From Cenarchaeum sp. (GTDB lineage Archaea; Thermoproteota; Nitrososphaeria; Nitrososphaerales; Nitrosopumilaceae), in NCBI GenBank assembly GCA_963692915.1, contig OY843584.1:1580827-1644826 (forward strand): a DNA stretch of 64,000 bases, read 5' to 3'. The notes under the pieces were generated by a model, which had not been told where the DNA came from, ran no database searches, and saw only the letters and a list, made by a program, of their open reading frames with translations. Of the stretch, positions 25,006 to 52,127 are shown one piece after another. The number at the start of each line of letters is the position of its first letter. The stretch's first letter is position 1. The position numbers and the translations under genes were made by a program.

Positions 25006-25965
25006 CTACCTCTCCATGATGACCCTTGCAGACCTCTTTGGGTCTATGGAGGCGCCCGCGCTAAACTGCGCGCCAATCCGGCACACGTGCTCGGCCTGCT
25101 CCATGCGAACCTCCAGTCCGCTCAGCGCCACGCTGACTGAATCCCTTGCGGCCACTAGTGCGCTGCCCCCTCCAATGTCTGTGCCTCCCCAAAATGCGGG
25201 GCTCACCACGACGTCCATGCCATTGACGTCCATGCTGTCTACTCGCAAGTCACCCCCTTCCAGGAGCTGAATGGCGTGCCTGGGCGTCATTACGCAAAAC
25301 ACCCCGCCCGGAAACTCGACGCCCACGCTATTGTCCACTATGGTCCGCGCAACTCCTAGCAGGTCATTGCCTCCCAGCATGTTCTTTCCGTCAACTTTGC
25401 GCGAATTCGCCTGGTTTTGAATGTGCAGCGTGTCTGCAAGGGCCAAATCACTCGTATTGATCAGGCTGGTGTGGACTAGATTTTCCACTACTGCGATCAC
25501 CCCGTCACGTATGGAGGCGAGCAGGTCGCGCGCCACGTTCTGGGGATTTCCTGCCATGTCATTCCGGCTCACCTGGTGCCACATTGACCAATGCCTGGGG
25601 GCACCTGTCATTATCGTATAGCATGATCTCGCATCCTGTGAGCCACCCTGTAGCGCCTGTGCCGGGCGTGGGGCATCAGGCACGATGCGCCTCCATGACT
25701 CGCCAGGTCGCGGCCTTGCCACCCTTGCATAATCCAGCACGGAGCGGTGTGGCTTTGGCATTATGCGTGAAATGTCCAAATGCCAGACGCTGTCGCCTTT
25801 TGGCTGATGGTCAATCTCTCCTACCGTGCTGCCGACCTGCTTGACTAGTTCTTCCCAGACAGGTTTATCGTTGCTGAACGCGTCAGTTATCACCTGGCAG
25901 ATCTCATCCCACTCTCGATCCTTTGCGCCCTGAGTCTTCATTGTGGGGTCAAGAGGGTGGCGCAT
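25006..25965 (-). CDS. HK97-fold major-capsid/encapsulin-like protein (paralog of 44895-45839)
   Basis: VSRNDM..NVARDLL..I...VEN backbone helix, CVMTP, VNGMDVVVSP, C-terminal GA.IDPK..V; start uncertain. Confidence 0.6.
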   Translation of the reverse strand: MRHPLDPTMKTQGAKDREWDEICQVITDAFSNDKPVWEELVKQVGSTVGEIDHQPKGDSVWHLDISRIMPKPHRSVLDYARVARPRPGESWRRIVPDAPRPAQALQGGSQDARSCYTIMTGAPRHWSMWHQVSRNDMAGNPQNVARDLLASIRDGVIAVVENLVHTSLINTSDLALADTLHIQNQANSRKVDGKNMLGGNDLLGVARTIVDNSVGVEFPGGVFCVMTPRHAIQLLEGGDLRVDSMDVNGMDVVVSPAFWGGTDIGGGSALVAARDSVSVALSGLEVRMEQAEHVCRIGAQFSAGASIDPKRSARVIMER

Positions 25966-26598
25966 ATATGAATTGTTGCCGCACCCTGGCCAATTGACAA
26001 AGAATACGCCGACTCTTGTGAACATATCCTATCGCCGCTAGTTGAGGAGAAACCACGTTCACGCTGCCTTGACTGTGGAGAGTCTTTCCCTGGAATCATG
26101 CGACAGACCCCGTTGTGACAAACACATCCTTGGCCTCGTCCATCAAAAAACACCCCTGGGCAGTCTTGGCTGGTGTGCTTACAGCCGTTGGCGCCATGGT
26201 GGGCATTGTTCAATTGTTTACCACTACCTGATCGCCGATCCTCCCTCATACACATGTCATTCTCGCGCGGTGCCGCGTGCGTGGATCGCTACTCGTATGC
26301 AGACCGAATCGTGCTGCTCATGGCCATCGCCCTCCTCTTCAAGAGGCGTGACTGCCTCCTCGAGCCGACATGGGACCTCCGAGACCCCTCTGCAGACCCC
26401 GAACCGTGCCCCCGGGTGTCTGACTCTAGGCGCCCGATCCTACATGTCGCCGAAACGCTTTACCTATTTTGCGATATTCGGCTATATTCACCATGAATTG
26501 TTCAAAAGCGTGTTTTTGATGCCGAATACCGCAAGTCAATTTTCTGTCTAGTCCCGGTTGGCCCATGATCACACGTTACTGTTATTACCGTAGGCCCC

Positions 26599-27057
26599 GT
26601 GGCGGTGTTGATGTCACCAGACAGTGCCGATCACTGGGATCTCCCAGAAGCACCTGCCTACTTGGATATGCTTGGGCGTGACGACTATCTCGAAAGCGTG
26701 TCAGACAGGGATGAGGAGGATGAAGATGAGGAGGAAGAAGACGATGAGGAGGACAATGACGATGAAGGAAAGCCGTCCTTAGGTCTGGAGGAAGCTGGCT
26801 CAATTATAAGCAATTTTGCTGCGGTTATGGAACACGTAAACAAACAGCCCAACATGGATGCGTATGGAGATTTTTCGCGGGTAGACGCTCCCAACCTCGA
26901 CAAATACTACAAGTCTTTCTCCCAGAATGACACAACAAACAACACAGCGAACAACCGCTTACGACAATTATTCACTGTGGAGAATGTATTGAAAGCTCTT
27001 GGTGGCATGGCTGCCATTGCTACCATAATTATGTCATTTTCTCACTATAGTTCTTGA
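26599..27057 (+). CDS. Acidic protein with C-terminal TM anchor
   Basis: D/E run; tail VLKALGGMAAIATII. Confidence 0.65.
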   Translation: MAVLMSPDSADHWDLPEAPAYLDMLGRDDYLESVSDRDEEDEDEEEEDDEEDNDDEGKPSLGLEEAGSIISNFAAVMEHVNKQPNMDAYGDFSRVDAPNLDKYYKSFSQNDTTNNTANNRLRQLFTVENVLKALGGMAAIATIIMSFSHYSS

Positions 27058-27167
27058 TCATCATTCTCTGTATTGGCATTTACACGCCATCTTACTGTGA
27101 TATCTTTGCTACAAGCCGCAAAATGACCGTCTTGCAGACTGTTAGTGTGAACAGCGGAACCGACTTG

Positions 27168-29192
27168 CTATTTTAATTTTTTACCAAGCTCTTCTAATTT
27201 ATAAACAACTTTGCTAATTGTAAATGATTTTAGTGCGTCGAAGTCTTTTTCATGTATTATTTCCAGCATGTGATAAACTGCGCGTTTGTCGTCTAACACC
27301 TTCTTTTGGGTAGCTTTCGGTTTTTTGGATTTTTGTGATGTGCTGTGATTGCAATCCTTTTTAGCGTTTTCGTTTAGATCTTCTTTACTTTTGGCATTGC
27401 GTTTTCTTGCTTCTTTTAATGCTTTATAATAACTATTGTCATTTAGTAAATTTTCATATTTGATAAGATCATCTGCCAGTGACGTTGTTAAATCTTGCTC
27501 AAAACAAGAAAAGTGGTTATTGATGCTTGGTTTTATCTTGGAATCTCCCTTGTAATTGAGTAACTTTGCGAGCTCCATCAATTTGTGATTGGCGTTATTG
27601 CTCGCACTGTCATTTTGCTCTAGATCAAGATCCCAGATCAAATAAACCTGAATGCCAAATTGCATAAATATGTAGGCGAACCTTGATATTTCGTCCTTTC
27701 CATTGCAAGGCACTATGGAAATCTCACTCTTGTTCAAGTCTACATTTAGCACACTCGCCGCAGCTAGCAACATATTCCTGTCACCCGGCCCCTCCACCAC
27801 TACGGCTATTTTTGAGAAAAATCCTTCAGTTGCCCAATGGGTGGCCCTCACATCTAGCCACCTTCGCAGTCTTTTTTCCGGATCCATTACGTCAGGAATT
27901 TTCACGTCCATGTACTTTATGATGTGATCCAATGCTGTTGACTGTACCTTGGTATCTCTGAATTTCCGAAACAGGCGAATATTGTCCATGTTCTGCAATT
28001 CTATAAAGTATGGAGAATGTGTGCTGCATATCAACTGAACAGTGTCTTTACCGTTTGTCAATTTTTCAAATTGTTTCAAAATACGTCGTTGTCGTTGTGG
28101 GTGCTGGTATAGCTCTGGCTCGTCGATCATGATCAATTTAACTGGATCTGCATACTTTGATTTTTGCTCTATGTCTTGGCTAGTTTTCCTGCTACTGTCT
28201 TTTTTAATTTTCTGCTTCGCGGCCTGATTAGCTATTGTTTCTAGTATGGATATGAGATATATGCGCTGTATTCCGCTTCCTACATGTTTTATATCTGTTG
28301 AATGGCCATCTTCTGTTAGGGTTATTGATGCACGCAGCGCAAGTGACTTTGGCTCGGGCAAATTAATGCCTATTGTAAATTTAGCATTGTTAGTATAGTT
28401 GTTGGTGTTTTCTTCAAGATTATCGTTTATGGGATCTAGTATATCTTCATGAATTTTCGGCAAATAGTCCTCGTATTTTTTGACAAACTCTCCCTCAATT
28501 GCTTCCAAGTGATCCTTGACTTCGGGATCTTTTCGCACAGCCATATCTATTAATTTTGTCAAGTTTGAATCCGCCCTCTCTTCTCCATCTACGGTGATGT
28601 CCTTCATGGCCGGAACATGCACTATTTCCAATATGTCGCCTAGGCTCATTTGTGAAGGTTTCCAGTTAACAAATCGTCCTTTGTACTTGCTCTTGTCTTT
28701 GGGATGTTCTTTTATGTATTTGTGCTCAAACTTGTTTAAATCCTCTTCCCATGAGGCGGCGCTATATTCTGGAAACCCCTCAAAGTTTTTTTTAATAGCC
28801 TTGAATTTTATCGGCCTCGGCTTAGACCCTGCATCTCGAATTTCATTAAACGAGGAATAACACGTTTTCCACACCTCACATTGTATTGTGGGTTTACCTT
28901 CTCCACCCTCAAAGGTTTTTTTGATTATGAGTCTTTTTTTAACTATAAATTCTGGTGCTTTTATAGATTTCTCTACATCTGATAGCACAAGCACCAATTC
29001 TATTTTTGCGTCTGGCTTGTTAAAATCCCTCTCGACCACATTTGCCTCTTCGCTCTCAAACAGCCTAAGGGCATCAAGTATGGCCGTCTTTCCAGTTCCA
29101 TTAGCTCCAATCATCATTGTCAGCTTGTCTAGATTTAGTGCCACGTTCTTGAGTGAGCGAAAGTTATTGATGCATATCCTATCAATTTTCAT
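27168..29192 (-). CDS. OLD-family ATP-dependent nuclease (ABC ATPase plus TOPRIM)
   Basis: GANGTGKT Walker A, GSGIQR signature, IDEPELYQHP, STHSP, VVEGPGD, WDLD. Confidence 0.92.
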   Translation of the reverse strand: MKIDRICINNFRSLKNVALNLDKLTMMIGANGTGKTAILDALRLFESEEANVVERDFNKPDAKIELVLVLSDVEKSIKAPEFIVKKRLIIKKTFEGGEGKPTIQCEVWKTCYSSFNEIRDAGSKPRPIKFKAIKKNFEGFPEYSAASWEEDLNKFEHKYIKEHPKDKSKYKGRFVNWKPSQMSLGDILEIVHVPAMKDITVDGEERADSNLTKLIDMAVRKDPEVKDHLEAIEGEFVKKYEDYLPKIHEDILDPINDNLEENTNNYTNNAKFTIGINLPEPKSLALRASITLTEDGHSTDIKHVGSGIQRIYLISILETIANQAAKQKIKKDSSRKTSQDIEQKSKYADPVKLIMIDEPELYQHPQRQRRILKQFEKLTNGKDTVQLICSTHSPYFIELQNMDNIRLFRKFRDTKVQSTALDHIIKYMDVKIPDVMDPEKRLRRWLDVRATHWATEGFFSKIAVVVEGPGDRNMLLAAASVLNVDLNKSEISIVPCNGKDEISRFAYIFMQFGIQVYLIWDLDLEQNDSASNNANHKLMELAKLLNYKGDSKIKPSINNHFSCFEQDLTTSLADDLIKYENLLNDNSYYKALKEARKRNAKSKEDLNENAKKDCNHSTSQKSKKPKATQKKVLDDKRAVYHMLEIIHEKDFDALKSFTISKVVYKLEELGKKLK

Positions 29193-29206
29193 GGGTGATT
29201 TTCACC

Positions 29207-29437
29207 TCATCCAACTTTATCTTCATCATACTTGTTTATTATGTGCTTGTGAAGATACTTTCCGTGAGACTCGGCGCTCTTTAGCCCCAAGTACTCGGAC
29301 TCGGGCACGTTGAAATAATCATACATTGACCCGCTGTGAAACTTGACTCGCAGAGTGCGAGTGTCATTAAAATATTCTATGCTCGCTATGTTGCTTGAGT
29401 CTACCGGAATTTCCCCGTCCCCGACCATGGGCTCCAT
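29207..29437 (-). CDS. KTSC domain protein
   Basis: VDSSNIASIEY..LRVKFHSGSMYDYFNVP..Y..L..AESHGKY. Confidence 0.9.
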   Translation of the reverse strand: MEPMVGDGEIPVDSSNIASIEYFNDTRTLRVKFHSGSMYDYFNVPESEYLGLKSAESHGKYLHKHIINKYDEDKVG

Positions 29438-29476
29438 GCCACCTCCGGTTTTAAAAGTGTGACGGCCTGTCCCTGC

Positions 29477-29589
29477 GTACGAGGTCAGCATCTTTCTGCT
29501 CATTTGGCCAAACGGGCACATCCTGCCGTTCTACTTGTCGTGATGGCACCTGCCTGGGCATGAGCTGGTAAGAGGCGCTGACCCCACAT
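29477..29589. mobile_element. MITE, 113 bp, inverted relative to 7220-7332
   Basis: GTACGAGGTCAGCATC..TTCTGCTCATTTGGCCAAA..GCTGACCCCACAT. Confidence 0.85.
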
Positions 29590-29637
29590 GGTCATATGCG
29601 TTCAATGCTTAAATTAGCGCTTACTGCTCATTGGTCT

Positions 29638-30354: not shown

Positions 30355-30564
30355 TGTGACTTAGCTGCTGCTTTTGTTGCATCGCCTTTCTATATAGCTG
30401 GCCATTGCCGCACACCACACTAGCATGCGGATCTAGCATATTCTGTCCTGTCAGATACACGATGATTGAGGCATATTGGCTGGTCTTGAGACTGTTTTTC
30501 TGCTGCGTTTCATTACGTTTTGCCAATAGTTAAAATATGCCCTTTCCACGTCCTGCGTCATTCA

Positions 30565-31563
30565 ATGACGTCACTGTCGACCCATTTTGAAAACCAGTTC
30601 ATCTCTGACTTGAAGCAGGCACAAACTATTGCCAGATCTGATCAATCTGGCTATGCGCTTGGAACCGCAATGTATCTTGGGCAGCAGTCAGTCGAAAAGC
30701 AGCTAAAGTCCATAGTCCTCAAGCTGGACGAACTGTTGGAGTTGGGGCAAAGCAAGAATATACTGAGTTCTCTTAGCCATCAGCTATACCCAAATATCTA
30801 TAAACTGCTTTATGTCAAGCACATTGCTAGTGTGGCCGCGCCCTATTTTACGAATGATGGAATGGTCAGGCCAAATTCAGAGCAATCGGACCACAGCGAT
30901 CGTCTTTTTGAAACAATAAGCAAACAGTGGGAAGACTATTCAAGAAACCCTAACTGGAAATTGCTGGACTGGCGAATTTCAATGGGGGTTCCTCTTGACC
31001 AAAAGGAACTCTCCGAGCTCAACCTGCACCATCACACCTATCTAAAAAATCTTCAAGAAAGTATGGGAACGAATCCACCACTTCAGACCCTTACTAATGA
31101 TATGTTCACAGCCCCCAATATGCAGAAAGTGATTCATGATGATGACCAACTTCAAAAACTCTTTACTAAATATGTGCAACATCCATCAAATATTAAACGG
31201 CAAAATCTATTTTCTGCCTATGCTGACAGCGTCGAAAACATTTTTTCGTCTGGGTCAAAAACATCTGACTATTCTTCCTCACAATCATCTGCCAAATTTA
31301 GCCGTCGACTTTTATTAGATTTTAGTTATAATATTGTTGTAGGATTTGCTAACTATTATCTGTTCTTGTTTCCCCATGAATCACTTGGGCGTTATCCGGC
31401 AATTTTAAATGATGGACGCGTTACAACTGACATGTATGGGGAATATTCTGACTATCCGCTATACTGGGTGTTTATTTATCTACGTTATGAGCTAGAGTAT
31501 CTACGCACTAATTCTACATGGATTGATCGTCTCTGGAATCAAATTCAACAATTTGTAGACTAG
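30565..31563 (+). CDS. Long HEPN-domain protein
   Basis: AMYLGQQSVEKQLKS..LSHQLYP..HESLGRYP. Confidence 0.82.
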   Translation: MTSLSTHFENQFISDLKQAQTIARSDQSGYALGTAMYLGQQSVEKQLKSIVLKLDELLELGQSKNILSSLSHQLYPNIYKLLYVKHIASVAAPYFTNDGMVRPNSEQSDHSDRLFETISKQWEDYSRNPNWKLLDWRISMGVPLDQKELSELNLHHHTYLKNLQESMGTNPPLQTLTNDMFTAPNMQKVIHDDDQLQKLFTKYVQHPSNIKRQNLFSAYADSVENIFSSGSKTSDYSSSQSSAKFSRRLLLDFSYNIVVGFANYYLFLFPHESLGRYPAILNDGRVTTDMYGEYSDYPLYWVFIYLRYELEYLRTNSTWIDRLWNQIQQFVD

Positions 31564-31816
31564 TTGGCACGCTGTTAATGTGTGTGGGCTATCACCTTTG
31601 GCATTATCTGACATGACACTGACAGATATTTCTGTATGTTGGGACTGAATATTGCCACATTAGTCTTTTGGGCAATATTTTAGTTAAATCTGTAACCTGA
31701 CGGCTCACACGATTATTACAGCTGTTCGAAATGCGTGAGTTGGTGGCCTGGTCTGCTGATGACTACACATGGCAATTGCCAAAAGATTCTGACGTTGCTG
31801 CGGCGCGACTGCCGCC

Positions 31817-33172
31817 TCACTCGCCCTTGCCATTTGCCGTGTACGGCGTTCCCAACGCCCTCATGACCATCTCCTCTATGGTTGGCTGGATTGGCGATGT
31901 GGCCTCTGGATTCCTGACTAGGGCGCACCTGTAATGGCGACCCAGGTCCCTGGCGACTAGCACGCCGCCAAGCCTCCTATTGCCCCTGATCCTTTTTGCC
32001 AGCTCGCCCTGAAACTTGTCATCTGTGACATAGTTGTGCGGATCCTCGACTATCAGCAGCGACTGCCGTGTCCCAAAGTGCCTTATCTGGCTCTTGGAGA
32101 GCGCCTTGCGGAGCAGCCCCCTGCGCGAGTTTGTGGGAAATATGTGCCCAAACTCCATGGCCACCACGTCACGTGGCGCATATGCCTCGATGTAACAGTC
32201 ATGGACCCGCAGGTCGGCGCGTCTGCCGTCATCGATGGCCGGCTCTAGCTCGATCTCCCCTGTAACGGCGCAGAGATGGACATAGAGGCGCATCTCAAAG
32301 GCATACTGCAGGAACTTCCACTCGCGCAGACCCCCCCGCCAGGAGGCATACTTGGCCGAGTCGTGAATCGGCATATTGTGCGCCCACATGAACGCGATCA
32401 TCGACTCTAGGCCGTCGAGCGCATTGGGTCGCGAGCCTGCGAGTTTCGGCAACTCGAGTGCCATGGACGCATAATAGACAAGGTCCACCCTTCTCTTCAC
32501 CAACTCTGTGATCTTTTCGGGGCAGAGCGCCAAAAACTCGTACATGCGCGGATAGCTTGCCTTGAGCCAAGGTTCAATCGTCTCGGTCGGCTCTAGCTGC
32601 CGACGCGCAAAGATGTTGCGTGATATCTCTGATATCCTGTAAAATTCGTCGTCTTCGCCATGGCGCATGTCAATGTCCAGCCCTAGCATGTCTGCCCTCC
32701 TCTTGAGCAGCCCTAGGAGACCGGGCGCTAGGCCCTTGTGGGCCTTGGGATCCTCGCCGTTGATGATTCTATAGGTGGTGCGGTTGATCAGGTACTCTAC
32801 GAGGATACCCCGCATCACCGTTTGCCTATCGTCTCCCTCAAGGTTGAGGAGGTCGTTGCACACCTCGTATATCTCGCCATACTCGTCGCGCTGCATGTAT
32901 ACCCTGTCGATGATGGCCATTGCGATACCGTCATTTGCGTGGCCTGTTCGAATCATGTCCACGATGCCGGCACGAAGGGCCGACGTTACGCGGTTTTTGC
33001 CGCCAATGTAGAGGTTTAGCGAGTCTATGCTCTGCCATGCGTCCGTTGGGTCGCCGTCATGGCTGCTCCTAACCTCGTCGCATATGTGCTGCAGCTTTGT
33101 GAGTATGACCTTGTCGTGGGCGCTAGGGGTCGTCTGATTCGGGGATACTGCGGGATCCGGCTCGGATTTCAT
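31817..33172 (-). CDS. Helical N-terminus plus PD-(D/E)xK-like nuclease
   Basis: FEMRLYVHL..ELEP..GRRADLRV..YIEAY; colinear with 15159-16493. Confidence 0.8.
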   Translation of the reverse strand: MKSEPDPAVSPNQTTPSAHDKVILTKLQHICDEVRSSHDGDPTDAWQSIDSLNLYIGGKNRVTSALRAGIVDMIRTGHANDGIAMAIIDRVYMQRDEYGEIYEVCNDLLNLEGDDRQTVMRGILVEYLINRTTYRIINGEDPKAHKGLAPGLLGLLKRRADMLGLDIDMRHGEDDEFYRISEISRNIFARRQLEPTETIEPWLKASYPRMYEFLALCPEKITELVKRRVDLVYYASMALELPKLAGSRPNALDGLESMIAFMWAHNMPIHDSAKYASWRGGLREWKFLQYAFEMRLYVHLCAVTGEIELEPAIDDGRRADLRVHDCYIEAYAPRDVVAMEFGHIFPTNSRRGLLRKALSKSQIRHFGTRQSLLIVEDPHNYVTDDKFQGELAKRIRGNRRLGGVLVARDLGRHYRCALVRNPEATSPIQPTIEEMVMRALGTPYTANGKGE

Positions 33173-33383
33173 GCGCACGGTGACCAGGGCGGCTCATATT
33201 GAACCTTGCAGTGGGGGGACGGCCTTTGGGCGCGGTTTGGCACTCAATGGCCGCTTTGCTGCGAGATCTCGCGTTTGCCCCCCAGCCGTTCATGGCGTGC
33301 CGAACCCTGTCATCGGAGCCTCGGGGCTGTCTGGTGTTGCCTGGTTTGCCGTGCCAGAAAAAAAATATGGTGTGGAGAATCAG

Positions 33384-33497
33384 CTAGTCTTTCTCGTTCT
33401 CGGCGAGTTGCTCTTCCCTGTTCTCCTCGGACGCCTCATGGGCGTCGTTGTTCGGATTCATGGAATCCGAGCGGTCGTCGTTAGACGTTCTATCCAT
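33384..33497 (-). CDS. 37-aa NPNN peptide
   Basis: MDRTSNDDRSDSMNPNNDAHEASEENREEQL; TATATAAAA box about 25 bp upstream. Confidence 0.65.
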   Translation of the reverse strand: MDRTSNDDRSDSMNPNNDAHEASEENREEQLAENEKD

Positions 33498-33740
33498 GAC
33501 ACACCGTCTACTCCATGTTTTATATATATCTTGAGGCGGATCTGGCAGCCGATCGTGTGTACTGGACACGGTCTGGGCGGCATTGATATCATGTGGCGGT
33601 TCTTGGCATACGCCATGTGCCGATTCTCTGCGGGCGGGCTTGTGCGACATGGCATGACTAGCTAGTCCTTGTCATCTGCACCACCACGTGGCCATCCTGC
33701 CAATGTCGCCAACAGTTAAACGCGGCTCTGTCCTTGCCTC

Positions 33741-34757
33741 ATGCCGATGACCCTCGTCGAGCTGGCCCAATATTTTGCAGAGCACGCAGCCTCTGACCTA
33801 AGGCAGGCTCAGGACATAGCCACATTCGACCAGTCAGGCCACGCGCTTGCCACAGCAATGTACCTCGCTCAGCAGTCGACTGAAAAGCAGCTAAAGTCCA
33901 TCATCATCAACATGGACGAAAAGATGGAGCTGGGCAATAGTAGATCAATTCCCAGGTTGCTTGGGCACCAGCTCTACTCTGGCCTGTACGAATTTTACGG
34001 CAAGCAGATTGCCGGCCTTGACATCCCGCCTATGGAAAATAGCTATATACGATATAACAGCCAACACGCCAAAAATGTGGTTCTCCTAAAGGATTTCTTT
34101 GGCAAGATGGGCAAGTTTTGGACCACTCATTCAACGAACCCACGACTGCAATCGATGTTTTGGCTCCAGTCCCTGGGCATAAAACTACAAGGTGCTGATG
34201 TGGCGCTGCTACACTTAACACACGCTCAATATGTGGACAGCATGCTTGATCTTGTCACCACAACTGGCACCAAGGTCCCGCCCATGCCCAAAAATGACTA
34301 TGTGCGGCGACCCATGCCTGATGCCATCATGGACGATGCGCTACTTGCCTCGTATCGTGGCAGGTACGCGCGTGCCGAGTTCAACACCATTGATCGCTAC
34401 AGGCTGGGCACGGCCTTTGAGCAATTCAGGGCCTTTCTCTCGCTGTTTCCAAACCCTGTGCCGGCCCCGTTTCATGCAGATGGCGCCGTGGCCAAAAACA
34501 TCGCCTTTAGCTTTGGCCTCCTGACACTGGTCTTTGAGCAGTACCAATACCTGATTCTGCTCCCCAACAACAGCTATGGGCGCTATCCCAAAAGGCTTGA
34601 GGACGGGCGAATCACGACTGACGTGTATGCGTCACAGGCCGATACCGTGATGCACTGCCTGCTTGTCGACGTTCCGTACCGACTCGGCCAGCTGCGTGCC
34701 AACTCTGGGAGGTTGGACGTGCTGCTTGACATGGGGCGCGAGCGCGGATGCTGGTAG
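33741..34757 (+). CDS. Long HEPN-domain protein
   Basis: AMYLAQQSTEKQLKS..LGHQLY..YGRYP. Confidence 0.82.
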   Translation: MPMTLVELAQYFAEHAASDLRQAQDIATFDQSGHALATAMYLAQQSTEKQLKSIIINMDEKMELGNSRSIPRLLGHQLYSGLYEFYGKQIAGLDIPPMENSYIRYNSQHAKNVVLLKDFFGKMGKFWTTHSTNPRLQSMFWLQSLGIKLQGADVALLHLTHAQYVDSMLDLVTTTGTKVPPMPKNDYVRRPMPDAIMDDALLASYRGRYARAEFNTIDRYRLGTAFEQFRAFLSLFPNPVPAPFHADGAVAKNIAFSFGLLTLVFEQYQYLILLPNNSYGRYPKRLEDGRITTDVYASQADTVMHCLLVDVPYRLGQLRANSGRLDVLLDMGRERGCW

Positions 34758-40341: not shown

Positions 40342-40359
40342 CAGCGCATACCGTGTGAC

Positions 40360-41136
40360 TCAGCTGTGACCCCTGCCGCATCTTCTTTCTATGTAATTGG
40401 CCATTGCCGCACACCACACGAGCACGATCTGCGCGTCGTTGATATCAACCGTGTACCCCGGCTCCGCTGCGGCGTGGCGCGCACCGCTCTTGTTGCTAAA
40501 GTCGTACATCTTTTTGAACGCATCCTTTACCTTTGGGTGCAATCCGGCCCTTGAGTCTATGTCCTCTAGAATCCCTGACAGGCCGGTTTTCTTGCTATAT
40601 CTTTTGGCCACGGCTTCTATCATCTTTATTGATTCGACAATCGAGGCCTCATAGTCCGGATTGGTCGGATTAATGTGCCTGATGGCCTTTTCTGCGTGCA
40701 ATTTCGCCTGCTCTGAGATGGTGCTGGCCTGATGCAGTGCGTCGATGCTCTCTTCGCCAATCACGGGCTCCATCTGACCTTCCACCATCTTCCACCCTGA
40801 ATCGTTTTCAAGCAAAATCTCATTTAGTGCATCCTCAAACTTTTGCCTATCCCATTCTGCCATTTGCCCCCACATCAACTCTAGCAGATCATAAACTTTG
40901 TTAAATTCTGCCTCATTGTATGCTTCGTACAACTCTTCGATTGAATAGCTCCACCTACTATATTCGCCACGTCTGCGCTTTTGCCAATATACCCACACTA
41001 CCTCTCTTGGCAACATGCCCGCTTGATTACAATCGTCAACTATGTCCCATATGCGCCTCTTTAGATCATCGTCCATGGACTCGAACTGCAGCCCCTTTAT
41101 CGGCTCATAGCCGTACCGTTTTGAAAAACTGCTCAT
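40360..41136 (-). CDS. AbiJ-NTD4-like abortive-infection protein
   Basis: FSKRYGY..LQFESMDDDLKRRIW..FNKVYDLLE N-terminus; C-terminal GARHA. Confidence 0.8.
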   Translation of the reverse strand: MSSFSKRYGYEPIKGLQFESMDDDLKRRIWDIVDDCNQAGMLPREVVWVYWQKRRRGEYSRWSYSIEELYEAYNEAEFNKVYDLLELMWGQMAEWDRQKFEDALNEILLENDSGWKMVEGQMEPVIGEESIDALHQASTISEQAKLHAEKAIRHINPTNPDYEASIVESIKMIEAVAKRYSKKTGLSGILEDIDSRAGLHPKVKDAFKKMYDFSNKSGARHAAAEPGYTVDINDAQIVLVWCAAMANYIERRCGRGHS

Positions 41137-41729
41137 GCGGATCCGCTTGGCTTGGCATTCTCTATTAATGTGTTATGTGAACGTTCATCGTATAATCATG
41201 TGCCGATCTTCGCGATCAGCTAGACGGTGAGTAGTAGAGATCCGGATGTGCCTCTGGTAGCTGTGGCACTGGATTGGGAGCTCTGACAGGCTCGTCGTAT
41301 GCCGTCTAGGTAGGTCACTGAAAATTGCGGTATAGATATCATGCCCGATAATTGCTCTGACAAGTTTGAACATTTAAAATTATGTGATTTTGTTGGCAAT
41401 GCCGAAATATGGACAAGGGGTCGCCGAGCGGTATGAATGAAAAGCTGTGCTAACCGAGCAAATGAGCCAATATGATGGATGCTGCCACAGCCTCAAGGCA
41501 AAGGCTAGAGATCAGAACCCATTGCCCACAATGTGTATAACGACCTATTCTAAAATTAAATTTTGTGAGGCTGTGGATGCTCACTAGGTATCTAGAGTGC
41601 AGATACTGGTAAAGTTGGGGCGTAGTCAACCCAATAAAATTATTCAACATATTATTGTCTACATCAGATATTCCCCCACGATCAACCATGAAATTCGAAC
41701 CAGCCAGAAAGTGTAGATCTTTGGCGATC

Positions 41730-42821
41730 TGTATTGTACAAAAAGTAGGAGCGGGGGCCAGAGGGCTTGCCGGGCGCGGATCCGGGAGCCCGCGGAGGGC
41801 CTTCGGGTCCGGCAGGCTGCCGAAACACACGTTTGGGGGCCTCCGGCGCCGGCGCGCCATGCCGGTCAGGAGGCTGGACGCGCGGGCGCTCCGGTACATC
41901 GCGAGGACGCTTGCGACCAGGAGCACCGGGGCAGTGGCGCGCGAGCTGGGGATCTCGCCGTCGTGGGCCCGCAAGCTCCGCGCGCACTGCCGGCGGACCG
42001 GCGCGCCGCCGGAGCCGCGGCCGATGGGGAGGCCGCGCAGGCCGATCACGCGGGAGCAGGCCGACGAGGTCCTCGCCGCGCACTCGCGCGACCCCGTCGG
42101 CGTGGTGCGCCTGGTCAGGCTCATGCGGCTCAACAACTCAAAAATAGCGTACGGCGCGGCGTACCGCATATTGTCTGCGGAGGGACTGGTCAGCAGCTCG
42201 CCGGCGAGGTCGAGGAGGCGCAAGTGGGTCCGGTTCGAGAGAAAGTACTCCAACGCGATGTGGCACGTGGACTGGCACATAATGAAATACGGTCCCCTGA
42301 GGGGCTCGCACCTCATAGTGTTCCTCGACGACGCGTCGCGGTGCGTCACGGGGTTTGGCGTCTTTCCCGAGGCCACGTCGGGCAACACGGTGATGGCGCT
42401 GCGCCACGCGATCGGGCGGTTCGGCGCGCCGGCGCAGGTGCTCTCGGACCACGGGACGCAGTTCACGGCGACCAGGCGCGGCACGCCGCGCCGCAGCTGG
42501 ACGCCGACGCTCTTCGAGCGGGAGCTGCTCGACGCCGGCATATCGCACGTCATGGCGCGCGTCGGCCACCCCCAGACCAACGGCAAGGTCGAGAGGTTCT
42601 TCCGGACGCTCGAGACGGAGATCGGCCGCCATGGCGGGGTCGCCGAGTTCATCGGGCACTACAACGAGGAGAGGCTCCACTTCTCCCTCGACATGGAGAC
42701 CGGCGAGACGCCCCTGCTGGCCTTCAGGAGGCGGAGGGCCGACGAGCAGGTCCGGGCGGAGAACCCCGGGTGGATGGAGGTGGACTCGGATGGGTAGCGC
42801 TCCTACTTTCCGTATAATACA
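41730..42821 (+). mobile_element. IS481-family insertion sequence
   Basis: 24-bp imperfect TIRs TGTATTGTACAAAAAGTAGGAGCG / CGCTCCTACTTTCCGTATAATACA; GC-rich. Confidence 0.93.
41858..42797 (+). CDS. IS481-family DDE (rve) transposase
   Basis: WHVD, LDDASR, LSDHGTQF, PQTNGKVERFFRTL, YNEERLH. Confidence 0.92.
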
Positions 42822-42830
42822 CTAGAACCG

Positions 42831-43723: not shown

Positions 43724-44671
43724 CTATGCTGTCATTGCGATGCTGGCCTTGAACCCGTATGGTTTTGCCCTGCCCGCATTGGTTGGCGGGCTCACGACGC
43801 TGCAATAGCGACCCACTGTAAACTCGTCATCCGTGCACGTGATCGTGGTCGGACCCGTGATGAACAGTGGGCCATACATGTGTGACGTGACGTATGCGAC
43901 GTTCTCAGGGATGCGCTCGTGGCCTATTATGCGCACGCCCATGTGGTCGATCACATTATCGGCTATTATTGCTGACATTTCTGGAATGCCTTCTGAGATC
44001 AGCGAGTTGAATACAGCGTGATTTATGAACACAGTGTCCAATTCCATACCTCCCTGCTCGTCGTTCATCTTTCGCACAAAACCCCATAGGTGAGTTAGAG
44101 TTTGCGATCCGCCATACTTGAATGTGGCTTTGAAGGGATACAGCTGATCCAAAGCCTCAAGGCAGGCATTGTTTTCACATGACCATATCGGCCACATCAT
44201 TCCCTCCACAAAAGTCTCAACATCAAACTGGTCAAATCCGTCACGCGGAACTGAAAAGCGCACAGGGGTCATCTTTGGCATGTGTGCATATGAGCGCGTT
44301 GACGGTTCTCCTCGGACGTGACTGTCCTGCGTCAGGAACGGCACTGTGCCCTGCACTATGCCCTCGCTTTTGGTCATGCGGAATCCGAACGCTAATTGTC
44401 CGATTTTTGGAGATCCGGCGGGTGCGAATGTCGGCCATGCGGGATCCTGCGGTATCTCCCTTGAGATATCCTTGCTCCCCCCGGCACGGATCATGGTGTA
44501 ATAGTCGCCTGTATAATCCGCCGAGTTGGAGGAGGGCACAATGCCACGAAACTCGCCTCCCGGCAATATTGTGAGCAACATGCCCTGGCGCAGGAGCATT
44601 TCGCGAGCGTTATAGAGATGTTTCAGCACCGAGGGCAGCACGTTGTGGTTGCCTTTGCCATAATATTCCAT
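43724..44671 (-). CDS. HK97-fold major-capsid-like protein, subfamily 2
   Basis: FSVPRD..FDVE..IWSCEN, DTVFINH..F..L, GVRII..RIPENVAYV..FITGP. Confidence 0.5.
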   Translation of the reverse strand: MEYYGKGNHNVLPSVLKHLYNAREMLLRQGMLLTILPGGEFRGIVPSSNSADYTGDYYTMIRAGGSKDISREIPQDPAWPTFAPAGSPKIGQLAFGFRMTKSEGIVQGTVPFLTQDSHVRGEPSTRSYAHMPKMTPVRFSVPRDGFDQFDVETFVEGMMWPIWSCENNACLEALDQLYPFKATFKYGGSQTLTHLWGFVRKMNDEQGGMELDTVFINHAVFNSLISEGIPEMSAIIADNVIDHMGVRIIGHERIPENVAYVTSHMYGPLFITGPTTITCTDDEFTVGRYCSVVSPPTNAGRAKPYGFKASIAMTA

Positions 44672-44894
44672 GCGCACGGCCTGGCATGAAGGGGAGCGAT
44701 ATAAGCCTAGCAGAAAACCCAGAAAACGTCTCCGGGATGGGTGGTTTCGGGATACATTTGCCGTAGTTTGGATATTGCGCTACACGGGCAACAGGCACCC
44801 GGAGTCCTGTGGTAGCCACATATCCGGCCATTTTGCTCATATTTGGCCAATTGGGTGGCAAAGGCGTATATCCGGGACTCTTGTCTGCCTCTCC

Positions 44895-45839: not shown

Positions 45840-45840
45840 C

Positions 45841-47022
45841 GTGGATTCTGCTAAGGCTTCTGATAATGCTGATAACATTGATCCTGCACAGAACCTCAAG
45901 TGTAAAAATTGTCCTGCATGGCTTCGGATGATATTTGAGCAATACCTCAGTCGCGCGGGGGACATAGTGGTGAATAGCAAGCTTCCCATTCTTGAATGTC
46001 CGTCATGCCATAACATCGTAATACCTTCATACACAAAAAAAGCAGCTCAAAACGCCGAGTTATGTGACAGTGGTGAATATGCGCCTACCATTGAGAACTT
46101 GAGGTTTGACTTCTGCCCAAACATCGAATTTGTGTATTCAAGCATTGATTGGGAGGTAATTCCAGGTTTAAAGCAGTCAGAATATGGGATTGATGGATAC
46201 TATGTGCCGGTATTTTTTAAAAAACACGTGCTGCTAAAATATGTGATTCTTGAGTATCCTATGGAGTATTTCAAGGATGGTGGCAGCATACACTTTTCCA
46301 ACGGACACGATCTTGAATATGGCATAAATCGAAATGGCCTACTTTTCTGTTGGCTTGGTGATCTAGACAAGATTCCTGTAGCCGAGCAGCACTATATGTT
46401 CTCAGAAAATGTCGAGTCTGACCATGATGTGGTATCTGGCTTGTACATGAAATCTCGTCTAAACCTGACACCTGGAGCGACGAATGAGCAACTGTTAGAT
46501 CGTTCGATGACTCGCCTCAACAAGACGATGCAGTCTAAATTCCATTTCAAGCTGCATGCTCTCAATCCGGTAGAGATACAACTTTTGGAAAAATTAGCCA
46601 AGCCGGTTGTTTGGAATGACTATGTCGCTGTTACAATTATTGGGGTTATGAAAGTGCACATTGAATCTCTCGATGAAGATATGCTTAACTCTGATCTTAG
46701 GAGTTTAGACAAACATGCCAAAAAATTAAAGTGTTTACAGCTTATGGATGCATGGCTTCAATCCAAGATTACTGAAAATATTTCAAATATAATAAAACCA
46801 TTCAAGATTCTTATTGTGTGGCGAAACATATTTGCTCATAAATCCAAACTAAAAACTAAAAAAACGCTGTATTGGTGCAACGTTGAGATGGGACTATCGG
46901 GGGATGCTAAACCAGAAGTGTTATACGATACTATAATTGAAAAGATGGTAGAGTCATATGACCATATCGAACATGCTCTGGCGGAGTATGAATTTGAGAC
47001 TCCCATAATTTTTGTCAAATAG
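45841..47022 (+). CDS. Zn-ribbon protein with C-terminal HEPN-like R-x4-H motif
   Basis: CKNC..CPSC; VPVFFK..LLKY..YGINRNG..WLGDL; WRNIFAH. Confidence 0.75.
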   Translation: MDSAKASDNADNIDPAQNLKCKNCPAWLRMIFEQYLSRAGDIVVNSKLPILECPSCHNIVIPSYTKKAAQNAELCDSGEYAPTIENLRFDFCPNIEFVYSSIDWEVIPGLKQSEYGIDGYYVPVFFKKHVLLKYVILEYPMEYFKDGGSIHFSNGHDLEYGINRNGLLFCWLGDLDKIPVAEQHYMFSENVESDHDVVSGLYMKSRLNLTPGATNEQLLDRSMTRLNKTMQSKFHFKLHALNPVEIQLLEKLAKPVVWNDYVAVTIIGVMKVHIESLDEDMLNSDLRSLDKHAKKLKCLQLMDAWLQSKITENISNIIKPFKILIVWRNIFAHKSKLKTKKTLYWCNVEMGLSGDAKPEVLYDTIIEKMVESYDHIEHALAEYEFETPIIFVK

Positions 47023-47068
47023 GATTATCTTGTGCTCTGATATGCCTGTGCTATTTCACACGTGGGGC

Positions 47069-47335
47069 TCAACATCGCACCCCAAAGTGCCTTATCTGCC
47101 TCTTGGAGAGCGCTTTACGGAGAAGGCCGCTGCGCGAATTTGTGTGAAATATGTGCTCAAACTCTATGGCCACCATCTCTCGCGGCGCATATGCCTCGAT
47201 GTGGCAGTCGCAGACTCGCAGGTCTGCCATCTTGCCCTTATCAATGGCCGGCTCTGGCTCTACCTCTTTTACGAGTGCGCAGAGATGGACATAGAGGCGC
47301 ATCTCAAAGACATATTGTAGGAACTTACAGTTGCG
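47069..47335 (-). pseudogene. Internal fragment of the 31817-type nuclease
   Basis: FLQYVFEMRLYVHL..ADLRV..ALSKRQIRHFG without N- or C-terminus. Confidence 0.8.
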
Positions 47336-47339
47336 CAAT

Positions 47340-48987
47340 TCACCTGATTCTAATGTGCTAAAATTTATTGATGGCCAGCAGCGCGTGACAACTGTTGCCC
47401 TGTTTCTCATATGCGCCCGCAATTTTTTCTATGAGCGACGAAATGACTCGTTGCTTGCCTCTAGGCACTATAAGACTCTCCAAACGTACCTTTACAGATC
47501 CACTGACACAAAAAATCGCCGAACGTCTGATCACCTGCTCACACTAAGCCGTCCCAACAGAGAACTGTTCCAAATTTTGATTGACAACCCTGCCGTCCAA
47601 AAAGAGACGGTTCAGCAGCACGCCGATCAAAATTCTCCAAACATGCGTCTTGTGGAAGCCTACCTCTATTTGACACGCTGGCTTAATTCTAAAGCTTCTT
47701 CCAAAGCTTCTTCCAAAGCTTCTTCCAAAGCTGACGAAATCAAAGAAGTCTATGCATTGGTTCGAACCCTTCTCACAAAATTCAGTGTCTATAAAAATGA
47801 GTCTGCTGATCGTAAACTTGCACAGCGAATTTTCAAGCTGGTAAACCATCGAGGCCGCAAGCTAGACATGTCTGATCTTGTAAAAAACTATCTGTTTGAC
47901 GAGTTGGACAGCAATGCTGAAAAGATAAACATCGACGCCTATGATGACCAATGGGGCGATATTGTCAATAATGTGACAAACGAAATGACCGGAGTCAAGA
48001 TGGACCACTTTTTGCACCATTATCTAATCGTGTCTGCCGGCTATAATTCGATCCCCATTAAATCAAATCACAAGCGCATGTATTTTACATTCGAAAAACT
48101 CGTGGAACGCCAGCTCCAAACCCCCAAAGCCATAATTGGCGAGTTGCGCAACTGGTCTGAAATACTTGAAATTGTCCGTAATCCCGCACATCCCGACCAC
48201 TTTCCCAAACACCCAAACATCGCCTATTATCTTGCGCGCCTGAAATCCCTGAGCGTCACTCCGGCGTATCCGGCAATCCTGCTCGGCTATACCGAATACT
48301 GGAAAAAGCGTCAAACGCGGCTATTTGAGGCGCTCCTGATGCTGTGCTTCAAGTATCATATCAGGGTTCAGCTGGTCACCAAGATGAGCCCCAGTGTGTA
48401 CGGGCGCACGATGAGTGACATTGCCGATGACATACACCGTGGAAAAGACCTGGACCAGATTATTGTGGATCTGATGAACACCAACCAAAAATATCCAAAC
48501 CGCAACATCATACGAGACATGCTAAAAGACAGGACTCTCAACTCTCGCGCCCCTGCCATTGCCATGTTGGAGGAGGCAGAATACCCTTCGGCCTCCACCC
48601 TGCGCCCGATGGAGGAGCCATCCCTTGAGCACATAATGCCCCGGATCCTAGACAAGGACTGGCACAGCCATGTCATACAGCACAATGGCATTGACCCCAC
48701 CAACCCTGCCCGCTCTGATGACGCGGTGAACAATTACCACCGTCGGCATGTTGACTATATGGGCAACCAGACGCTCCTGCTGCCAGGGGAGAATGGCTCA
48801 CTCTCCAACAAGTCATACGACAAGAAAAGGCTAGTTTACGGAAAACAGCACGTTCAGGATAACGGGCACGCTGCCCCGCTTTACAGTCTGGGATCATGAA
48901 AGCATTATGAGCAGGCAGAAAAGACTTGCGTCAAGGATCACCTCATCCATAGACCTGGGCACGGTTATTGACCATATACGGTCATAG
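47340..48987 (+). pseudogene. GmrSD-like DUF262-DUF1524 nuclease, 5'-truncated with a frameshift near 48840
   Basis: IDGQQRVTT, IF..VN.RG..L..DLVKN, LEHIMP, GNQTLL..N..LSNK; alternative frame restores W..ESI..RQ..LA. Confidence 0.8.
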
Positions 48988-49217
48988 GTGGCCCATTACA
49001 CGGGTCTGTTTTTGTGGGAGTGCGCGCACTTGGCGATCGTTGCCTGTTTGCAGGTGCCTTTCTGGCATTGTGCGGACTCTGCTACATGGGGCGCTCTGAG
49101 ATCCCTGGGATTGAACAACGCGTCCATCTGCTGTTCTAGAGGCTGCGCCCGAGGCGGCTATTTTGGTGAAATGTTCTGGCCTCCGGGGACGCCTGCCCTA
49201 ACTGACCTGTATTGGTT

Positions 49218-50267
49218 TTAGGGGTTTTGGAAACGCACATATGAATTGCCGTTTAGACGATTAATCTGCTCTTCATACCAATATTGATCGCGTATGTATC
49301 CCATGTTTCTCCTACCATGGTCCCCATCCCTATACGTGTCTTGAGAATAATAGTATCGTATTCTCTGTTGAAGCTTTGAAATCATAAACCCCGCCTCAAA
49401 TATCCATTTTTTCACCATGTCTTTCTTTTGGTAATACGTCGGCGTAAATTCAGATGGGTATCGGGCGTCTTCATGAACATATAGCGCATAGTACCTCCAT
49501 GTCCACACGTCATCTAGAAAATCATACATTGTTTTTACCTTGCGAATTTCCCATGTTGACAAGAGGTCTTCTATGTTGTCTTTAAACTCCACCTCACTCC
49601 AACTAATTGCTGATCTGTAATTGCGCATGGGTCCCAATATTTCACTTGGCTGAAATTGCAAAGGACGTAGTTGTTTGCATATGTACTCGTAATAGCGTTC
49701 AGGATCTAGCGTTTCATGTATATTTGCCAACTCTGTCCACACATCCATGCCAATTCCGTTTGCAATCAAACTCGGTGTTTCTTTGATGTATTCCAACACT
49801 GCGGACTTTGCTGGGTTTACACATATGCCTAATGTGATATTTTTCAGTTCATTCCGGTGCTCATCCCTGTTTAGCAATCTGTTAAACTGCCTTCCTAATT
49901 TGTTTGTAAAAATATCGTGCCTGTAATCTTTGGGATTGAAACTATCATCAAATGCAGCATAATATACCATGATGGCCTTGATCTCCTTTTCCATCGCCTG
50001 CTGGGCATGATACATTGCAATTGCCGGACTCTTGTCCACTATTCTAGCTGCCTGCTCTATATCATAATTGGAATATTGTTCCCAAACACAATGCCACCCC
50101 CATGCGTGATGTAGCCTCTTTATGATCTCTGCCTTGAATTCCCTAGTTTTCATATTGCGCATACTTGCTAATGATTTATCATCTGCAACCCCGCCCTTCT
50201 CGCTCTCCCTGCCGTGATCTCTCACGTTGCCATCTGGACCATCCCTCTGCCACTCCCCTTCTTCCAC
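49218..50267 (-). CDS. Long HEPN-domain protein (divergent)
   Basis: AMYHAQQAMEKEIKA..RHDIF..HEDARYP. Confidence 0.82.
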   Translation of the reverse strand: MEEGEWQRDGPDGNVRDHGRESEKGGVADDKSLASMRNMKTREFKAEIIKRLHHAWGWHCVWEQYSNYDIEQAARIVDKSPAIAMYHAQQAMEKEIKAIMVYYAAFDDSFNPKDYRHDIFTNKLGRQFNRLLNRDEHRNELKNITLGICVNPAKSAVLEYIKETPSLIANGIGMDVWTELANIHETLDPERYYEYICKQLRPLQFQPSEILGPMRNYRSAISWSEVEFKDNIEDLLSTWEIRKVKTMYDFLDDVWTWRYYALYVHEDARYPSEFTPTYYQKKDMVKKWIFEAGFMISKLQQRIRYYYSQDTYRDGDHGRRNMGYIRDQYWYEEQINRLNGNSYVRFQNP

Positions 50268-50554
50268 CTTGCTCCATCTTGCGACTGTTTGATATTAACT
50301 ATCCCTGTTCGGTAGTCGCTCATGCGCCTAACCGGAGCCTGCCGAAGACGGTCTTTGAGGCACGCGCACCAGTTTGACGCGATTCCGGTCGTGGCCAAGG
50401 AGCTCATATGTACGATCTAGTCGCTGACCCCATATACCATCAGGCGTCTGTCTCAACTAGCGTCATCACGCACGAGTCCCATATTGGCGTGTTGGTGCTG
50501 TGATCGGCCAACCGTGGGGAACCCCTAGTGTTCAATATGGGCAATAATTGCAGG

Positions 50555-50725
50555 CTATCGGCGAAGCCCTTCGCGCAGGATCGCAAGCCCCACCATCCAG
50601 GCAATGTCAGTCCAAGTCACGCTCCCCGGACCGTGCTGGATCACCTTGGCCCCAAGCATGATAGTCGAGCCGATAGCCGCACCATCCACAATGTCGCGCG
50701 CGTCGTCCTTGTTCACGTGCAGCGT
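50555..50725 (-). pseudogene. Copy of the 39261-39431 small gene with start codon changed to ACG
   Basis: About 200-bp near-duplicate of 39250-39457. Confidence 0.6.
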
Positions 50726-50761
50726 ATGGTAAGGACAGAATTTAAGGGTTTTATAGGATGC

Positions 50762-50805
50762 GTATGGGGTCAGTACCCGTGCCAGATCAAGGGGGGGGGG
50801 GGGGG
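50762..50805. repeat. Solo MITE end followed by a G15 tract
   Basis: GTATGGGGTCAGTACC; G15 at 50791-50805. Confidence 0.7.
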
Positions 50806-50864
50806 CCGGCTCAGGCGACTGAGAGGATCGTCAAGTTAATAAATAACGTAGTAAAAGGAGGCGT

Positions 50865-52127
50865 GTGGCCTGGATTAGAGTCGTAGGCAGTAGGTGGGTC
50901 TATGTTGAAAGTAGTGTCAAAGATACGACACTGTTGGCAGACATGGATCCCGACTGGCAAGATGGGCAGAAAGCATATGGCCAGAACCGGTTGCCCAGAG
51001 GCATCCGATTTGAGCCACCACTACAGCGCACACATGATGAAACCATAAAACGTCCCAGAGATGCCCAAGGCACATGGAATGCGGCAAATCCAAATAATGA
51101 GAGAACGGCGGATCAGCTATATCTAGCAAACATGGCATACGCCTTGTCAAAATATGGGGAGAGGTCGCCTGTAGAGAAATTGTTTAAACCAATACATATG
51201 AATCAATTCAAGGAACACACACCGGAATGTTCAAGATATGGAGTTTCTAGTCAGCCAACCTCAAATTCATACGATAGCGAACAAAATGACAAGAGTGCTC
51301 CGTATCGCGACAGATTTAGCCACAGAGTGTTAGTTGAACGTGATGATCTGTTGGATGGCATAATTGGCCTGCATACATATTATGCTAGAAAGTTAGCCCT
51401 GAAGCTCAATGAGGGTCGTCATCGTTCGGCGCTCAAGGCCATATGCAAAATAGGCAACGTCCAAGGCCACCTAGACATTAAAGATCGGTATGCGACAAAA
51501 TTGATAAATGACATGTTGATTCGAAATTCCCGCAAGGACAAAATTTCTATGACGCATCTAATCTTAAATTTAGAGACATTTATACGACTTGTAAAAAATG
51601 CGCAAGGATATGCTCATTACAGTTCGCAGCATCCAACGCAGCTCGAACACGGATCAGCATCAATACCCGGACTTTCCCATCTGACCACACTAGTCGATCC
51701 CAGCATGCCAGGCGACAGGATTACGTTTGTAAATCCAGAATGGGCGCTGTCTCTCCGCGAAGGTCCAATCTGGCTAGGTATTGATCGTAGACCTGACACA
51801 TGCCAATTAAGTGTTATAGATGACTGTGAATTTAATGTAATAGACAGAGAGCCGAAAACCGATCGTAAATTTGGCATGACATTGTTAGTGAAGGAACCCG
51901 AGGAGCAAACGTCAGATTCGTTTGAACATGCGAGATCACCCGCGTCACGTCCACGTGTACATCCCATGTTACGACAATGTGTCAATGGGGCACTATCAAG
52001 GATTGAGCTCAGAACGCAGCCATATGGTTGGATTGTAGATCGGATAGTGGAGAACTGGGAGTTGGTCGAACACTACTTTCAAGGACGTGTGTCAAGAGTT
52101 GGCCAAGGCATACTGCTTTCACAGTAA
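50865..52127 (+). CDS. HK97-fold major-capsid-like protein, subfamily 2
   Basis: VLVERDDLLD..YARKLALKL, THLILN.ETF..L, PGL..TLVDPSMP..FVNP..LREGP; TTAATAAATA box upstream. Confidence 0.55.
   Translation: MAWIRVVGSRWVYVESSVKDTTLLADMDPDWQDGQKAYGQNRLPRGIRFEPPLQRTHDETIKRPRDAQGTWNAANPNNERTADQLYLANMAYALSKYGERSPVEKLFKPIHMNQFKEHTPECSRYGVSSQPTSNSYDSEQNDKSAPYRDRFSHRVLVERDDLLDGIIGLHTYYARKLALKLNEGRHRSALKAICKIGNVQGHLDIKDRYATKLINDMLIRNSRKDKISMTHLILNLETFIRLVKNAQGYAHYSSQHPTQLEHGSASIPGLSHLTTLVDPSMPGDRITFVNPEWALSLREGPIWLGIDRRPDTCQLSVIDDCEFNVIDREPKTDRKFGMTLLVKEPEEQTSDSFEHARSPASRPRVHPMLRQCVNGALSRIELRTQPYGWIVDRIVENWELVEHYFQGRVSRVGQGILLSQ

Follow-up and report, generated by a model that had tools for sequence, protein, structure and literature searches.

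Few cases are known in which cells have reused the capsid fold of phage HK97, namely as encapsulins, as gene transfer agents (GTAs) and as the capsid-redirecting proteins of satellites. Encapsulins are cellular shell proteins of this fold without virion genes, and GTAs, whose capsids are domesticated HK97-fold proteins in cellular genomes, keep the full head-tail gene cluster including terminase and portal. In Family 2B encapsulins two paralogous shell proteins can co-assemble (PMC11071501). Ccm of SaPIbov5 is a homolog of the phage capsid protein that occupies pentamer positions and suppresses the phage (PMC8569155). Proviruses of thaumarchaea include one with a protease fused to the capsid protein, and solitary capsid genes are not mentioned in the accessible sections of that article (PMC6563490). 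Here we describe a stretch of 64,000 nucleotides from Cenarchaeum sp. (contig OY843584.1, positions 1,580,827 to 1,644,826; the window below), in which at least two genes, and probably a third, stand alone and derive from the HK97-fold major capsid protein of archaeal tailed viruses. We found no paper on this family of capsid homologs, judged by titles and abstract openings. The reading that we tentatively prefer, by analogy with Ccm, is that they are exapted capsid homologs that may act on related viruses by interference or sensing.

The window is the last 64 kb of a single-contig genome of 1,644,826 bp (G000; 99.86% complete), which encodes an archaeal AmoA (389 bits), and the organism is therefore an ammonia-oxidising archaeon. 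A sister genome (G001) is about 95-96% identical to it in nucleotide sequence over one core stretch, and the same sequence is present in several studies (contigs of four public runs). The guanine-plus-cytosine (GC) content is 59.4% for the genome and only 43-52% for much of the window between 26 and 56 kb. No tRNA genes or Rfam families were found within the window.

HK97 fold of P1 and P2 and their provirus relatives

Four open reading frames (ORFs), here P1 to P4, had been singled out in the original prediction as HK97-like capsid genes, and all of them are present at or near the predicted positions, with the coordinates refined as given below. P1 (25006-25941, minus strand) encodes 311 amino acids (aa) at a GC content of 58% in the form on record P0005, its maximal ORF running to 26025. 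P2 (44895-45839, plus strand) encodes 314 aa at a GC content of 46%, counted from a GTG codon at which its relatives begin to align, its maximal ORF starting at 44670. The proposed paralogy of these two genes was confirmed by BLASTP (25% identity over 287 aa, E 4e-31). Both belong to a family (A1) with two deep, well-supported clades, of which G000 has one gene each: P1 for the P1-type clade and P2, the best scorer against the A1 profile, for the P2-type clade (support 100/99). Sequence searches of the usual kind gave no match for P1 or P2 in Pfam, PHROGs and PADLOC, Pfam and PHROGs being blank for all A1 members, and none in the PDB with P1 or with the A1 profile. Likewise, tblastn against 50,697 phage records gave no match for P1, and for P2 and P0016 only noise on non-capsid features.

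The fold is seen in the structure model. The AlphaFold2 model of P1, built on a 17-sequence alignment, reached a mean predicted local distance difference test score (pLDDT) of 81.6 and a predicted template modelling score (pTM) of 0.83. Foldseek of this model against the PDB gave at least 363 matches at E <= 0.001 (best E 2e-10), headed by the capsids of phage DT57C, cyanophage P-SCSP1u and Haloferax tailed virus 1 and including HK97 itself (2fte_G, 6.6e-8), a GTA capsid (6tb9, 4.9e-8), the Pyrococcus furiosus virus-like particle and encapsulins. Among the matches listed, all are capsid, GTA, encapsulin or encapsulin-derived shell entries. Their TM-scores are modest (0.43-0.55), and values of such size are usual for the flexible HK97 fold. 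Moreover, the ESM Atlas returned HK97-fold capsid clusters (0.97, 178 of 256 features).

A chain of sequence homology leads from A1 to solved phage capsids through a provirus of a related archaeon. Positions 11-306 of the 316 in the A1 profile align to residues 368-697 of a 709-aa ORF in genome G213 (domain E 2.5e-18; hhalign 97.4%). This ORF occupies the capsid position of a tailed-virus head-tail module: a Portal_Mu gene (28.9 bits, cut-off 23.9) immediately precedes it, and connector-sized ORFs come next, then a Phage_tube_2 tail-tube gene (56 bits). Its C-terminal 329 aa gave tblastn matches in 13 phage records, of which 12 are annotated, all as capsid or major head proteins; the strongest match, the capsid gene of an Altiarchaeum virus (E 9e-3), is located after a prohead protease. 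Homologs of its capsid domain occur in 7 of 400 other genomes of the phylum. A profile of seven provirus capsid proteins (A7), six from those genomes and G213's own, matched the solved structures 8ho3_A (1.8e-11), 5tjt_A (4.3e-11) and 8zvi_A (8.2e-11), and all nine of its matches at E <= 0.003 are capsid proteins. A1 in turn aligned to A7 with a probability of 98.5% in hhalign (E 2.6e-15, 260 columns). This homology chain, together with the Foldseek result of a good model, demonstrates that P1 has the HK97 fold, and P2 is assigned the same fold by sequence, through its membership of A1, of which P1 is the modelled member. The A1 family thus corresponds to the C-terminal capsid domain of the longer provirus gene, and its solitary copies are without the N-terminal half.

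P1 and P2 are therefore closest to the capsid proteins of tailed archaeal proviruses, with homology to their capsid domain over the full length and the same fold, and differ from them in form and setting. Of the eight open frames matched for the provirus gene, five encode 620-709 aa; the gene has an extra N-terminal half and stands in a head-tail operon, whereas P1 and P2 are 311-314 aa long and solitary, in a genome where the three virion families tested gave nothing over the cut-off. The G213 segment on contig 27 (5624-18008) holds the portal gene, the 709-aa fused capsid gene, the tail tube gene and tail genes of 630 and 420 aa, and is apparently a complete tailed-provirus head-tail module in an archaeal family related to this one. 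For the first 360 aa of its capsid ORF no match was obtained; this part may be a fused protease or scaffold, as described for Nvie-Pro1 (PMC6563490). A direct search of the 709-aa ORF against the PDB was set aside, as it matched a repeat region only. Another genome (G237) shows the same series of ORF sizes as G213 and a partial match of the A1 profile at its contig end.

Upstream of both P1 and P2 (window 25942-26010 and 44825-44894) lies a common string, TTGGCCA, 0-6 nt, GGGTG, 0-2 nt, GCAA, which precedes a TATAT element (some 25-30 nt ahead of the start codon) and occurs at only these two places in the genome. We dropped it as a candidate motif, since it was defined post hoc and only part of it recurs ahead of the ortholog in G001.

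P3 and P4

P3 (43724-44671, minus strand; 315 aa, P0029) is transcribed divergently from P2 and belongs to a separate family (A4) with four copies in G000 and five in G001, found in 2 of 301 genomes of the class. No sequence link of P3 or A4 was found to A1 (hhalign), to A7 or to the 50,697 phage records (tblastn), the last also for a P3-like paralog, and neither the PDB by sequence nor Pfam, PHROGs and PADLOC gave a match for P3, the other A4 members being blank in Pfam and PHROGs too. Its model is of moderate confidence (pLDDT 63.9, pTM 0.65), with residues 47-131 under 50 and in effect unmodelled, and from residue 134 onward the order of helices and strands parallels that of P1. At E <= 0.001, Foldseek of this moderate model found 65 entries, the best at 8.6e-6, but the TM-scores are only 0.22-0.44; those listed are all HK97-fold capsid or encapsulin entries. 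The ESM Atlas also returned capsid clusters (0.92), but with only 124 of 256 features in common. The model thus suggests that P3 probably has an HK97 fold in its C-terminal 180 residues.

P3-like genes also form part of a recurrent cassette, in which a P3-like gene, a candidate for the capsid fold with about 370 aa, is accompanied by a 108-aa ORF and a putative HEPN-like protein of about 340 aa. It is found at genome positions 615459-618003 and 1123052-1126948 and in G001 at 1920593-1922825, both G000 loci lying in regions of mostly normal GC, and looks like a lineage-specific module.

P4 (50865-52127, plus strand; 420 aa, family A5) had been regarded as a looser partner of P3, a pairing that did not survive comparison: the best BLASTP E value between them is 1.5 and hhalign of the family profiles gave a probability of 0.3%. 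No similarity of P4 to P3, A1 or A7 was detected by BLASTP or by hhalign of A5 against A1, A4 and A7, and no match was obtained in Pfam, PHROGs, PADLOC or the 50,697 phage records (tblastn); as far as sequence goes, nothing marks it as a capsid gene. P4 has a 43% identical paralog at genome 1576221-1577456 and a 94% identical ortholog in G001, with a ratio of nonsynonymous to synonymous substitution rates (dN/dS) of 0.53 between G000 and G001. A block of P4 with an 885-aa TPR gene and a 400-aa gene is present twice in G000 and once in G001. The HK97 fold originally claimed for all four ORFs therefore holds for three of them at most: for P1 by model and homology chain, for P2 by family, and more weakly for P3.

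Distribution of the P1/P2 family and the missing virion genes

The A1 family is rare. A search among 1.84 billion representative proteins gave 17 matches. Of 401 genomes searched in the taxonomic family, 2 gave an A1 match, and of 401 in the class, 4 did so; the matches are full-length only in G000 and G001, and the two weaker ones of the class are those in G213 and G237. A search for related loci gave no confirmed locus in the viral, metagenome or genome contigs searched. All 17 rows of the A1 alignment have intact frames of 285-347 aa and keep the conserved motifs, at an identity among rows of only 24-47% apart from two close pairs. Two metagenome contigs apparently also carry both clades, as judged only from equal lengths of contigs. 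The P1 ortholog in G001 is 91% identical, the gene being kept at 91.6% nucleotide identity while its flanks differ. A third A1 copy, the second in G001, lies alone in a 3.2-kb indel with only 9-nt repeats at its edges.

The original prediction stated that none of the four genes sits in a morphogenesis operon, and as far as window scans with Pfam and PHROGs and genome-wide searches with three Pfam families can tell, this is correct. No terminase, portal, protease, tail or integrase gene was found by Pfam among the 40 window ORFs of 150 aa or more, smaller ORFs not being systematically scanned, and PHROGs gave nothing for ten otherwise unknown window ORFs; a module of portal, terminase, protease and tail genes around the A1 genes was thus not encountered in the window scans. 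Phage_capsid_4, Terminase_6N and Phage_portal gave nothing over the cut-off in the whole of G000 or G001, other terminase and portal families not having been searched; a sub-threshold Terminase_6N match (18.5 bits against a cut-off of 22) lies at genome position 844722, far from the window. In this respect G000 is unlike genomes with GTAs, since no portal or terminase exceeds the cut-off with the families tested.

These results bear on the idea that the capsid homologs belong to a satellite or a GTA-like element, which would encode a capsid protein of its own and take all other parts of the virion from a helper virus. In bacteria there are satellites that encode capsids, the P3 model has as its top Foldseek match a capsid from a study of a Vibrio cholerae satellite, a GTA capsid is among the matches of P1, and the third A1 copy lies in a small indel of G001. 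On the other hand, scanning of the ORFs revealed no integrase, primase, small terminase or portal, no tRNA genes were found in the window, the edges of the indel show only 9-nt repeats, and the genes are dispersed rather than clustered. We consider such an element very improbable.

The island and a possible antiviral role

The capsid homologs lie in what the original prediction called a defence island, and the sequence families of the neighbouring genes justify the term. They include an OLD/GajA-like ATPase-TOPRIM nuclease (27168-29192, minus strand; AAA_15 126.6, OLD-like_TOPRIM 56.6 and PADLOC Old 181.6 bits), a protein with an AbiJ N-terminal domain (40360-41136, minus strand; AbiJ_NTD4, PF18863, 80.5 bits), a GmrSD-type restriction endonuclease (47331-48899, plus strand; GmrSD_N 57.2 and GmrSD_C 39.1 bits) and a SIR2_2 protein (8038-9507; Pfam). 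The larger ORFs of the window also encode DUF3800 and DUF2321 proteins, many TPR proteins and many unknown proteins, as seen with Pfam, PHROGs and PADLOC. In a sequenced relative, 22% of the genes lie in dark-matter islands (PMC4158269).

The island is a mosaic of paralogous cassettes whose order is shuffled relative to G001. At other loci, P3-like genes are followed by a putative HEPN-like gene of about 340 aa, and the window holds three copies of that family (30520-31563, plus strand; 33741-34757; 19311-20165), recognised by paralogy, operon partners and alignment. A 349-aa putative HEPN-like protein (49218-50267, minus strand), encoded divergently from P4, matches this family in BLASTP (E 2e-4) and gives a sub-threshold Pfam HEPN match (17.3 bits against a cut-off of 22). 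The divergent P3/P2 pair of the window has an echo in G001, where a P3-like gene and its partner of about 340 aa are found some 1.5 kb from the P1 ortholog, the P3-like gene in divergent orientation. A block of the window (48449-56890) is 98% identical to G001, the 349-aa gene inside it being 100% identical; this, compared with 95-96% for the core and 91.6% for P1, suggests recent exchange between both lineages.

Just downstream on the P3 side lies a multicopy repeat (41450-42800) with overlapping long ORFs on both strands, the minus-strand one without a Pfam match. It has 12 paralog matches in the genome (71-98% identity among the matches listed) and about fivefold contig depth in four public runs, and is probably an insertion element of an undescribed type. 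A protein family of about 450 aa, with no match in Pfam or PHROGs, has full copies at 15159-16493 and 31817-33178 (55% identical), a 117-aa fragment at 47069-47422 beside the P2 operon and a distant 877-aa relative at genome position 1136217. Toward the end of the window (56998-64000) lie a 1702-aa ORF without a Pfam match and a HAD hydrolase gene, of which three and two further copies, respectively, occur near the contig start (genome positions 19, 5461 and 11665) at 100% protein identity; the incomplete last ORF of the window is another copy. This looks like a tandem multi-kb repeat across the linearisation point of a circular genome.

Only 2 nt after the P2 stop codon starts a gene for a 393-aa zinc-ribbon protein (45841-47022, plus strand) with two conserved N-terminal CxxC pairs, and because of this spacing co-transcription of the two genes is probable. 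The protein has a 37% identical paralog elsewhere in G000, without an adjoining capsid gene, and none in G001. We also considered it as a HEPN RNase and dropped this idea, since the RNIFAH motif is not kept in the paralog. PADLOC 2.0 returned no families for P1 to P4, the 393-aa protein or the 349-aa protein.

The close pairing of P2 with the zinc-ribbon gene invites the alternative that P1/P2-type proteins, perhaps with P3, form the shell of an encapsulin-like nanocompartment, maybe two-component, with the 393-aa protein as an example of its cargo. Encapsulins are defined by such a combination, an HK97 fold with none of the virion genes looked for; they (at E 5e-8 to 2e-4 over the two models) and the P. 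furiosus virus-like particle are among the Foldseek matches of both the P1 and the P3 models. Two deep paralog clades co-occur here, and two-component encapsulin shells are known (PMC11071501). However, no Pfam encapsulin family matched any of P1 to P4 even at E <= 1, and the sequence relationship points to a viral capsid gene, the sole encapsulin match of the provirus capsid profile (EncA) having E 1.1. No known cargo enzyme is encoded nearby, and the putative cargo gene is absent from G001. P1 and P2 stand 19 kb apart and share no operon, within an island of this kind; the patchy distribution (2 of 401 family genomes) and relaxed constraint are unlike a metabolic organelle. We therefore regard a nanocompartment as rather unlikely.

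Under our preferred reading, that of exapted homologs acting on related viruses, capsid homologs would be kept in a fast-turnover island of defence and dark-matter genes and could act in two ways. They might co-assemble with the capsid protein of an incoming virus and spoil its head assembly, as Ccm does in staphylococci, or, as capsid-shaped partners, they might provide the sensing for effector genes in their neighbourhood. The interference mechanism is modelled on Ccm (PMC8569155). Like Ccm, the capsid homologs of the window are encoded outside a virus, but the two have no sequence relation, and the satellite of Ccm is mobile, has a cos site and is packaged, whereas the ORFs scanned here showed neither an integrase nor packaging signals and no helper virus is known.

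Several observations weigh against an antiviral role. The link to defence is guilt by neighbourhood, in an island that is equally rich in TPR and unknown genes, and no PADLOC model matches any of P1 to P4. The association of P2 with the 393-aa gene was seen only once and is lacking in G001. Elsewhere, P3-like genes are placed in regions of normal GC and share operons with unknown genes, an arrangement that would fit a cellular role equally well. Finally, P1 and its G001 ortholog show a dN/dS of 0.71 at dS 0.069, compared with 0.23-0.44 for neighbouring genes; with about 33 nonsynonymous and 15 synonymous changes (approximate Fisher p 0.31), the gene is compatible with neutrality. The dN/dS comparison had been suggested from the start as a way to recognise neutrally evolving debris; made on this one ortholog pair of P1 only, it does not demonstrate constraint, and debris is still compatible with it.

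The serious rival is accordingly that the capsid-like genes are the last pieces of degraded tailed proviruses, which survive by chance and have no present function. Besides the P1 ratio, not different from 1, the foreign-like GC of 40-46% in P2, P4 and the 393-aa gene against the genome's 59.4%, the mosaic of shuffled paralogs with its insertion-element-like repeat and the sequence link of A1 to a provirus capsid gene all fit such an origin. On the other hand, three loci (P1, P2 and the second copy in G001) each retain only an intact capsid domain, trimmed of the N-terminal half, and the searches for portal, terminase and tail families detected none of these next to them. All 17 A1 rows are open at 285-347 aa with an identity of 24-47%, which is not what neutral decay would leave, and the host-like GC of P1 (58%) suggests long residence. 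The intact rows at low identity, the two deep clades and the GC of P1 thus speak against pure decay, and we hold the debris explanation to be doubtful, if worth serious weight, whereas an action of exapted capsid homologs on related viruses seems possible. A bolder version, in which the lineage would have domesticated at least two sequence-unrelated HK97 families (A1 and A4) as capsid mimics, serving either as a poison of head assembly or as a sensor that releases HEPN-like or other effectors, appears unlikely to us.

Finally, a free-standing, trimmed capsid domain persists in this archaeon amid defence genes, in two deep paralog clades and with a probable second capsid-like family beside them. 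Viruses of ammonia-oxidising archaea are hard to culture. If the genes are functional, they would be an archaeal case of a host-recruited capsid protein and would give a testable handle on the conflict between ammonia oxidisers and their viruses. If they are relics, they mark past infection by a lineage of tailed viruses whose capsid family is barely represented in databases. If capsid mimicry is true, they would represent a class of antiviral immunity in archaea that is made from the shell protein of the virus itself.

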